64,000 bases of DNA from Alphaproteobacteria bacterium (GTDB taxonomy: Bacteria > Pseudomonadota > Alphaproteobacteria > UBA6615). Every line of letters begins with the position of its first letter. The stretch's first letter is position 1. The stretch lies in the NCBI GenBank assembly GCA_038137215.1, contig JAYQBG010000001.1, positions 40,145 to 104,144 of the forward strand, in the 5' to 3' direction. Positions 12,489 through 13,004 of this stretch are shown in pieces. A program made the translations under genes and the position numbers. The notes under the pieces were generated by a model, which was not told the origin of the DNA, searched no databases, and saw nothing but the letters and a program-made list of their open reading frames with translations.

Positions 12489-13004
12489 CTACTTCTTCTT
12501 TTTGCGCTTCACGAACAGATCCGCCATCCAGCTCCGGATATCGAGCCGTTCCTTATACTTCTGATGGTAGTCCTCGGCCTCCCAGAAGGTCGGGGCCGGC
12601 TGGATGGTGGTCACGATCGGTTCCTCATACTTTCCCGATGCGTCCTTGGCAGCCTTCGATTCGCGTGCCACCCGTGCCTGATACTCATCATGGGTGAAAA
12701 TCGCAGAGCGGTACTGGGTGCCGATGTCCTTGTCCTGGCGGTTCAGCTGGGTCGGGTCGTGAATCTCCCAGAAGATATCGAGCAGGGTTTCATAGGTGAC
12801 GACCGTGGGATCAAACTCCAGATGCACAACCTCGGCATGACCCGTATCGCCTGTGCAGACATCTTCATAGGTCGGATTTTGCGTGTGGCCGCCGGTGTAG
12901 CCGGCCCAGGACTTGTTCACGCCCTCGACCTGATCGAAGATCTGTTGTGAGTACCAGAAGCGGCCGGTCCCGAATGTCGCAAGCGCCACGTATCTTCTGT
13001 TCAT
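12489..13004 (-). CDS. msrA: peptide-methionine (S)-S-oxide reductase MsrA homolog lacking the catalytic Cys (GCFWG motif reads GRFWY)
   Basis: Strong MsrA blocks [25 protein letters not shown] and [9 protein letters not shown]; N-terminal motif verified in DNA as ggc cgc ttc tgg tac; poly-Lys C-terminus. Confidence 0.8.
   Translation of the reverse strand: [171 protein letters not shown]

Follow-up and report, generated by a model that had tools for sequence, protein, structure and literature searches.

An intact, selectively maintained homolog of the peptide-methionine sulfoxide reductase MsrA, carrying an arginine in the position of the catalytic cysteine, is encoded on a 64,000-nt stretch of DNA from an alphaproteobacterium of the GTDB lineage UBA6615 (GenBank assembly GCA_038137215.1, contig JAYQBG010000001.1, positions 40,145 to 104,144 of the forward strand), the whole of which we refer to as the window. 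MsrA is a textbook example of a thiol enzyme, for which the catalytic Cys is regarded as the defining feature. The arginine recurs in two clades of close relatives, in which the nucleophile is lost while the sulfoxide-binding pocket, the place of the gene in a conserved neighborhood and a signature of purifying selection are all retained. On balance, we lean towards reading the window protein as a reductase-dead MsrA pseudoenzyme that is kept by selection and would act non-catalytically via its retained pocket, a role predicted from sequence. The evolutionary case is solid, for Arg clades that are small and belong to uncultured organisms.

The gene (12489..13004, minus strand) encodes 171 amino acids and was delimited by its open reading frame (ORF) and translation, its Pfam and NCBIfam scores, an AlphaFold2 (AF2) model and synteny. 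A Shine–Dalgarno-like GAAGGA, read from the sequence, lies 8 nt 5′ of the ATG (13013..13018, minus strand), and a scan for promoters and terminators gave nothing exceeding shuffle expectation. The preliminary description of this DNA, made from the sequence alone, had recognized an MsrA homolog, and its family assignment is confirmed by scores far above the cutoffs for both Pfam PMSR (PF01625; 198.7 bits, cutoff 23.7) and TIGR00401 (196.5 bits, cutoff 108.1), by 44–47% identity to solved MsrA structures across the whole core (phmmer) and by the predicted fold. The AF2 model adopts the MsrA fold with a mean predicted local distance difference test (pLDDT) of 78.5, its low-confidence parts being the loop 91–100 and the C-terminal helix 146–169. 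The 45 best Foldseek matches of this model in the PDB are nearly all MsrA entries (TMq 0.57–0.77), with values of 0.70–0.77 to 2J89, 6YEV, 1FF3 and others.

The active-site motif GGC CGC TTC TGG TAC (12951..12965, minus strand) reads G14-R15-F16-W17-Y18 and occupies the same columns as the GCFWG of solved MsrAs (2j89, 1ff3 and 2gt3) in the phmmer alignments, as the preliminary description had noted. Arg15, encoded by CGC (12960..12962, minus strand), falls where E. coli MsrA has its catalytic Cys51; a catalytic Cys or selenocysteine (Sec) in a GCFWG-type motif, by which the family is recognized, is thus absent. The only cysteine of the protein, Cys50, matches the non-catalytic Cys86 of E. coli. 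Recycling cysteines, which are not universal in the family, were rightly reported to be missing: there is neither a C-terminal Cys nor a GCFWC motif, and the protein ends in a poly-Lys tail (KRKKKK), within a basic C-terminus of LFVKRKKKK. This tail carries a charge of +5 and its helix prediction is of low confidence. The idea that it forms an amphipathic membrane helix was rejected, as its hydrophobic moment of 0.046 is lower than that of 98.9% of shuffles.

A search of 5.8 billion proteins places the window protein within a distinct MsrA subfamily, in which the usual GCFWG-V-E is replaced by GCFW[H/Q/D/E/T/G]-P-Q and which we refer to as the GCFWHPQ subfamily. Its hosts are marine Rhodospirillales-like Alphaproteobacteria. 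The C-terminal tail is basic and Cys-free throughout, reading RSWxSxLFxK(K) in closer members and NRPSILSSLFGKK in more distant ones, and most members contain two cysteines only, the catalytic one and the Cys86 equivalent. Among these relatives, two clades carry Arg at the catalytic position. The first, R1, comprises the window protein and four further proteins (P0002–P0005) that are 89–96% identical and share the motif GRFW[Y/F/H]-S-Q. All of its five lineages, the window included, have CGC at the catalytic codon, where Cys-type orthologs have TGC or TGT. The second, R2, consists of the P0015 cluster, with 27 member sequences and two GTDB species (loci L009 and L010) and the motif GRFWT-L-Q. 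Its Arg codon is synonymously variable (CGT/CGC), and it also lacks the second cysteine, leaving no Cys anywhere in the protein. It had been proposed that relatives be checked for the same Arg and Tyr substitutions as a sign of a conserved change; this holds for the Arg, which is fixed in R1, and fails for Tyr18, which varies among Tyr, Phe and His.

We observed that the closest Cys-type protein to R2, P0018 (from a Logan contig of 1.9 kb), has already lost the second cysteine (C50K) and deviates at four otherwise invariant columns, and it may represent an intermediate toward the Cys-free form.

The two clades do not group together. In a neighbor-joining tree of MsrA, R1 is monophyletic (100% bootstrap) and nested among Cys-type sequences (74–78% support), and R2, likewise monophyletic (100%), has the Cys-type P0018 as its sister (100%). 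When UvrC and the Na/Ca exchanger, encoded in the same neighborhood, are used instead, the tree has the form (R1, ((L008_C, L011_C), (L009_R, L010_R))) with 98–100% support, so that the Cys-type loci L008 and L011 sit between both Arg clades. On either tree, two separate gains of Arg are the most parsimonious account of these sequences. The trees are discordant in where R1 attaches, as compared among the window, L001–L011, L091 and L099: MsrA and a short UvrB fragment join it to L001–L007, whereas UvrC and the exchanger join it to L008–L011 (100%). Such discordance might stem from recombination of the mscS-msrA-snoaL segment or from an artefact of rates.

The preliminary description had argued that, as two codons differ from the canonical motif, a single sequencing error could not explain it. 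The conclusion stands and the argument is weak. The fifth motif position, which is His, Gln, Asp, Glu, Thr or Gly in Cys-containing members, is variable across the subfamily, so that one T-to-C transition (TGC to CGC) separates the Arg from the Cys form. It is the agreement of independent assemblies that rules out a sequencing error. At least 23 contigs, drawn from independent samples, encode the identical protein; their sources comprise an NCBI metagenome-assembled genome (MAG), three Joint Genome Institute (JGI) metagenomes, several ENA assemblies and a Logan run. Eight DNA versions of msrA occur among ten loci and the window, all of their differences being synonymous, and the ORF is intact and free of indels in every assembly compared. 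Restoration of the cysteine by C-to-U RNA editing (CGY to UGY) was considered as well and found no support: the active-site column is one of three among nine conserved Arg columns with an invariant codon, which makes the invariant CGC not unusual, and another Arg-type lineage uses CGA, which editing would turn into a stop.

Gene decay had been offered as one explanation for the motif, consistent with other lesions nearby. These lesions are indeed present, in the form of a frameshifted mscS directly beside msrA in the window and of many split genes in one public MAG of the same species, but they consist of homopolymer and indel noise that is absent from other assemblies. What shifts the mscS frame is the loss of one base from a C-run at about position 13246 (CCCCC versus CCCCCC), which occurs in the window only, while other assemblies of the species encode an intact MscS of 270–276 amino acids; a homopolymer or assembly error, or else a private variant, is the probable cause. 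Over the stretches compared, the window is 99.1% identical to short-read-type contigs, with two or three small indels; another of these lies in an intergenic T-run near position 15127, and one contig has a 1-bp difference of its own. The MAG in question (L081; GCA_038144615.1, contig JAYQOC010000005.1) shows 286 gap openings over 20.8 kb relative to the window. The split uvrB, uvrC and aminotransferase genes of this MAG are accounted for by an assembly full of indels, not by biological decay, and mscS is split there as well; even in this assembly the msrA ORF is intact.

Selection on the gene, expressed as the ratio of nonsynonymous to synonymous substitution rates (dN/dS, Nei–Gojobori estimates), points the same way. 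Within R1, msrA has a dN/dS of 0.03–0.09 at pairwise dS values of 0.31–0.96, and the two R2 species (L009 versus L010) give 0.076 at a dS of 0.46. These values are low and resemble those of flanking genes in the same R1 genomes (0.03–0.07 for the Na/Ca exchanger, 0.03–0.11 for MscS and 0.06–0.26 for SnoaL), and we conclude from this that the protein has remained under purifying selection since the loss of the cysteine. Judged by these sequences, that selection is strong and ordinary; within Cys-type clades, msrA ranges from 0.02 to 0.16. Neither a broken ORF nor a dN/dS near 1, the marks of a pseudogene, was found. With eight synonymous-only haplotypes, low dN/dS at dS values of up to 0.96, and Arg in five diverged lineages plus a second, independent clade with CGT/CGC variation, a decaying gene, a pseudogene or a sequencing or assembly artefact is hardly credible.

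The comparison of Arg-type and Cys-type active sites took as its reference 45 Cys-type members of the subfamily and the 48 alignment columns in which none of them varies. When each Cys-type sequence was left out in turn, 37 of the 45 deviated at no invariant column. The Arg-type proteins deviate at two to four of the 48, always including C15R and a replacement of Pro19, and these two are the deviations common to both clades. Pro19, present in 45 of 45 Cys-type proteins, is Ser in R1 (codon TCA in the window; 12948..12950, minus strand) and Leu in R2. By our reading of the fold, it would lie one helical turn from the catalytic position, in the helix that starts there. Given that R1 has two and R2 one other fixed deviations among 47 columns, the chance of both clades hitting Pro19 by coincidence is roughly 0.04, a low value that suggests that positions 15 and 19 are structurally coupled.

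Further changes cluster around the equivalent of E. coli Asp129, Asp93 in the window protein. The residue directly before it is Pro in 38 of 45 Cys-type proteins, Lys in R1 and Gln in R2. R1 has changed the preceding residue as well (G91D, with Gly91 invariant in all 45 Cys-type proteins), so that the column table reads Asp91-Lys92 in the window (12729..12734, minus strand) in place of the usual Gly-Pro; in R2, the loop reads Gly-Gln and is accompanied by I94K. Both Arg clades also share E48D, in the loop that follows the equivalent of Tyr82. By contrast with this remodeled rim, the interior is kept. The sulfoxide-binding residues Phe16, Trp17, Tyr46, Glu58 and Tyr98 are present in the window protein and all R1 members, and among all Arg-type proteins Phe16, Trp17, Glu58, Tyr98, Asp93 and His147 never vary, Tyr46 varying in one R2 member. 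In line with established MsrA enzymology, we take Phe16 and Trp17 to form the methyl pocket, and Tyr46, Glu58 and Tyr98, the equivalents of E. coli Tyr82, Glu94 and Tyr134, to be the ligands of the sulfoxide oxygen and the acid catalyst.

Could such a protein still reduce methionine sulfoxide, with the nucleophile supplied in trans by a low-molecular-weight thiol that Arg15 positions or, in R1, with Cys50 as the nucleophile? In favor of this, the acid catalyst Glu58 has been kept along with every residue that binds the sulfoxide, and Cys50 occurs in all R1 members. R2 lacks any Cys, however, so an intramolecular substitute cannot be general; mutagenesis of E. coli MsrA has shown the Cys86 equivalent not to be catalytic there, and we know of no precedent for rescue of an MsrA in trans. 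We therefore regard retained reductase activity as highly improbable.

The parallel remodeling near the site (C15R, P19S/L and P92K/Q), which adds positive charge by the pocket, would also be expected of a neofunctionalized enzyme in which Arg15, together with Lys92 in R1 or Lys94 in R2, carries out a reaction that needs no thiol, on a small substrate that is new and probably anionic or zwitterionic. The strength of selection equals that on the ancestral enzyme, and the partner gene described below encodes a SnoaL-like protein, of an enzyme-type NTF2 fold. Comparing an Arg clade with its nearest Cys clade, moreover, gives a msrA dN/dS of 0.17–0.19, above the within-clade values, a pattern that a burst of amino-acid replacement along the stems could produce. 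The residues that were kept, on the other hand, coincide exactly with those that bind the sulfoxide, and a new catalytic constellation is not to be seen; the gene context offers no candidate substrate, and thiol-independent chemistry has, to our knowledge, not been reported for the MsrA fold. A new enzymatic activity thus seems rather unlikely, though it deserves serious consideration.

Replacement of the catalytic residue is not confined to the clade of the window. Among MsrA hits across 80 GTDB-species loci, the catalytic column is Cys in 79 of 81 and Arg in two; among alignable domains from 150 diverse cluster representatives it is Cys in 139 of 142, with Gly, Pro and Met once each. Going by these sequence counts, Cys-less MsrA homologs are rare, at roughly 2%. 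The three exceptions in the second set are P0339 (GPFWR), which has a signal peptide, a mature part devoid of Cys and an intact Tyr/Glu/Tyr set, P0280 (GGFWG), and the second domain of a tandem MsrA-MsrA protein, P0227 (GMFWG). A scan of JGI metagenomes at the DNA level with the degenerate pattern A-T-F-G-x-G-R-F-W, which used Arg codons only and is hence biased to Arg, recovered R1 and R2 again plus other Arg-for-Cys lineages. One of these, an unrelated third lineage with a canonical-type GRFWGAE motif, was found on three contigs from different samples (L121, L124 and L129; 7025..7564 in L121) and preserves the C-terminal Cys as well as the remainder of the site. Its dN/dS of 0.06–0.32 is weak evidence for selection, because dS is only 0.05–0.10, and the gene context of L121 contains no SnoaL partner and nothing informative. 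Two others were seen on single contigs: a Bacillus-type GRFWC with an intact pocket (L114, match 1152..1178) and a degenerate GRFWLVE with several eroded motifs (QFRS, DQQ; L106, match 638..664). Finally, in L107 and L126 (match 2263..2289 in L107), an enoyl-CoA hydratase (ECH_1) is fused in one ORF to a degenerate PMSR domain with GRFWS, in which Glu94 is replaced by Gln and Tyr134 by His.

With the fold and nearly the whole pocket under selection and the rim remodeled in parallel, a non-catalytic, pocket-dependent role is favored, and we return to the pseudoenzyme reading with which we began. Loss of an essential catalytic residue combined with purifying selection is what marks a pseudoenzyme, the inactivity in this case being deduced from the residue that was lost. 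The T-to-C transition has removed the thiol nucleophile and, following established enzymology, the lack of a thiol or selenol at position 15 would make the sulfenic-acid route of methionine-S-sulfoxide reduction impossible. The retained, Arg-modified pocket could then bind a methionine-sulfoxide-like or a polar or anionic ligand or peptide without turnover, probably acting together with the co-transcribed SnoaL-like protein; we infer the binding function, the nature of the ligand and this operon-level cooperation. The preliminary description had likewise suggested, as its second option, a non-catalytic pseudoenzyme that binds methionine sulfoxide. The lost nucleophile, the kept pocket and the purifying selection agree with this, and binding of methionine sulfoxide in particular is conjecture.

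Several observations weigh against this reading. Population variants within R2 alter near-site residues that are otherwise invariant (G55R, Q97R and Y46H), which hints that the constraint on the old pocket is partly relaxed in that clade. The occurrence of Gly, Pro and Met at the catalytic column means that Arg is not the sole tolerated replacement. Furthermore, it is just as conceivable that the side chain of the Arg occupies the pocket, paired with Glu58, leaving no ligand site.

Directly downstream of msrA, at a distance of 11 bp and in the same orientation, lies a gene for a SnoaL-like (NTF2-fold) protein without cysteines (12067..12477, minus strand; Pfam SnoaL, 94.6 bits), which the preliminary description had called ester-cyclase-like and had correctly placed at this distance, and upstream of msrA lies mscS, encoding a small-conductance mechanosensitive channel (13046..13875, minus strand; Pfam MS_channel domains). 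The order uvrC, Na/Ca exchanger, mscS, msrA, snoaL and uvrB is common to the Cys-type loci (L001–L008 and L011–L013) and the Arg-type loci (the window, L081–L100, L009 and L010), from which it follows that the Arg forms are positional orthologs and not extra paralogs. In Cys-type and Arg-type members alike, snoaL is always found directly downstream and mscS usually upstream, and the msrA-snoaL pair is kept at 57% identity (L101) and where mscS has been lost (L102 and L103). No second msrA or msrB was found within the window by tblastn, the negative being somewhat less firm for msrB.

This pairing across the whole subfamily, whether Cys or Arg, would also be expected if the protein were a scaffold only, with Arg15 plugging the site, for instance by pairing with Glu58, and the protein serving as a structural partner of the adjacent SnoaL-like or membrane proteins, a role that may already have been that of the whole GCFWHPQ subfamily. 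That dN/dS is alike before and after the change and that the basic C-terminal tail is conserved fit this picture. An irrelevant pocket should drift, yet 44–46 of the 48 invariant columns are fixed in Arg-type proteins, nearly all pocket residues included, and we consider a purely structural role unlikely.

The neighborhood shows some further variation. The SnoaL-like partner is Cys-free across the subfamily loci (L001–L013, L101–L103 and the window, where the pair spans 12067..13004). Four loci of the other R1 lineages (L091, L095, L096 and L098) carry genes for a sigma-70 factor (extracytoplasmic function-like, DUF6596) and a YCII protein between snoaL and uvrB, with an AI-2E transporter gene additionally inserted there in L098; the window has none of these insertions.

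Taking the other lineages into account, one may speculate that the Arg-for-Cys homologs constitute a recurrent, previously unrecognized class of MsrA-fold proteins with a new, thiol-free function, although we hold this to be a long shot. Such proteins might be readers or sensors of methionine sulfoxide. Alternatively, they might be binding proteins or enzymes for a methyl-sulfur osmolyte or oxyanion, such as dimethylsulfoniopropionate (DMSP), methyl sulfonate or sulfinate, with the Phe/Trp pocket accommodating the methyl group, and Arg15 and Lys92 holding the anionic group. In either case, they would act together with the SnoaL-like partner, beside the gene for an osmotic-release channel.

Whatever their function, these proteins pose an annotation problem. 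Their public label is 'peptide-methionine (S)-S-oxide reductase MsrA', yet reduction of methionine sulfoxide is very probably impossible for them, and since the window protein lacks the defining catalytic feature of the family, an annotation as an active reductase of this kind is unwarranted. In addition, two origins of Arg among close relatives, together with a coupled second-site change, amount to a natural experiment on how a pocket is reused after loss of its nucleophile, and they draw attention to the uncharacterized gene pair of GCFWHPQ-type MsrA and SnoaL in marine Alphaproteobacteria. In the full-text literature searched, which leaves subscription journals mostly uncovered, there was no report of a natural, conserved Cys-less MsrA or MsrA pseudoenzyme, and no description of the GCFWHPQ subfamily was found.

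How does the window protein compare with known systems? With canonical MsrA (PF01625/TIGR00401; E. coli 1FF3 and poplar 2J89) it shares the family, the predicted fold, the Phe/Trp pocket and the equivalents of Tyr82, Glu94 and Tyr134. It differs in having Arg for Cys51, no recycling Cys, a basic C-terminal tail and, at positions +3 to +5 of the motif, Y-S-Q instead of G-V-E. Closest to it are its positional orthologs, the Cys-type members of the GCFWHPQ subfamily (P0006–P0027 and P0141–P0168; 57–81% identity), with which it has in common the tail of RSWxSxLF followed by basic residues and the lack of a C-terminal recycling Cys. These keep the catalytic Cys and an invariant Pro at +4, where the window protein has Arg and Ser, and have Gly-Pro before the Asp129 equivalent, where it has Asp-Lys.

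An MsrA without a resolving Cys is known from the selenoprotein of Clostridium oremlandii, a 1-Cys type that keeps its Sec or Cys nucleophile and in which the C-terminal helical domain is needed for activity (PMC4333827). Structures of 1-Cys MsrAs (PDB 4LWJ and related) are among the fold matches of the window protein (TMq about 0.70), which differs from them in having lost the nucleophile itself. A conceptual precedent, and only that, is provided by the CULT domain of cereblon, which is related to MsrB, shares the MsrB binding site and needs no catalytic Cys (PMC4287342), so that an Msr pocket is reused for ligand binding in the way we propose here. Unlike the CULT domain, which has the beta-tent fold of MsrB and is very distantly related, the change in the window protein is recent and took place within a set of MsrA orthologs.

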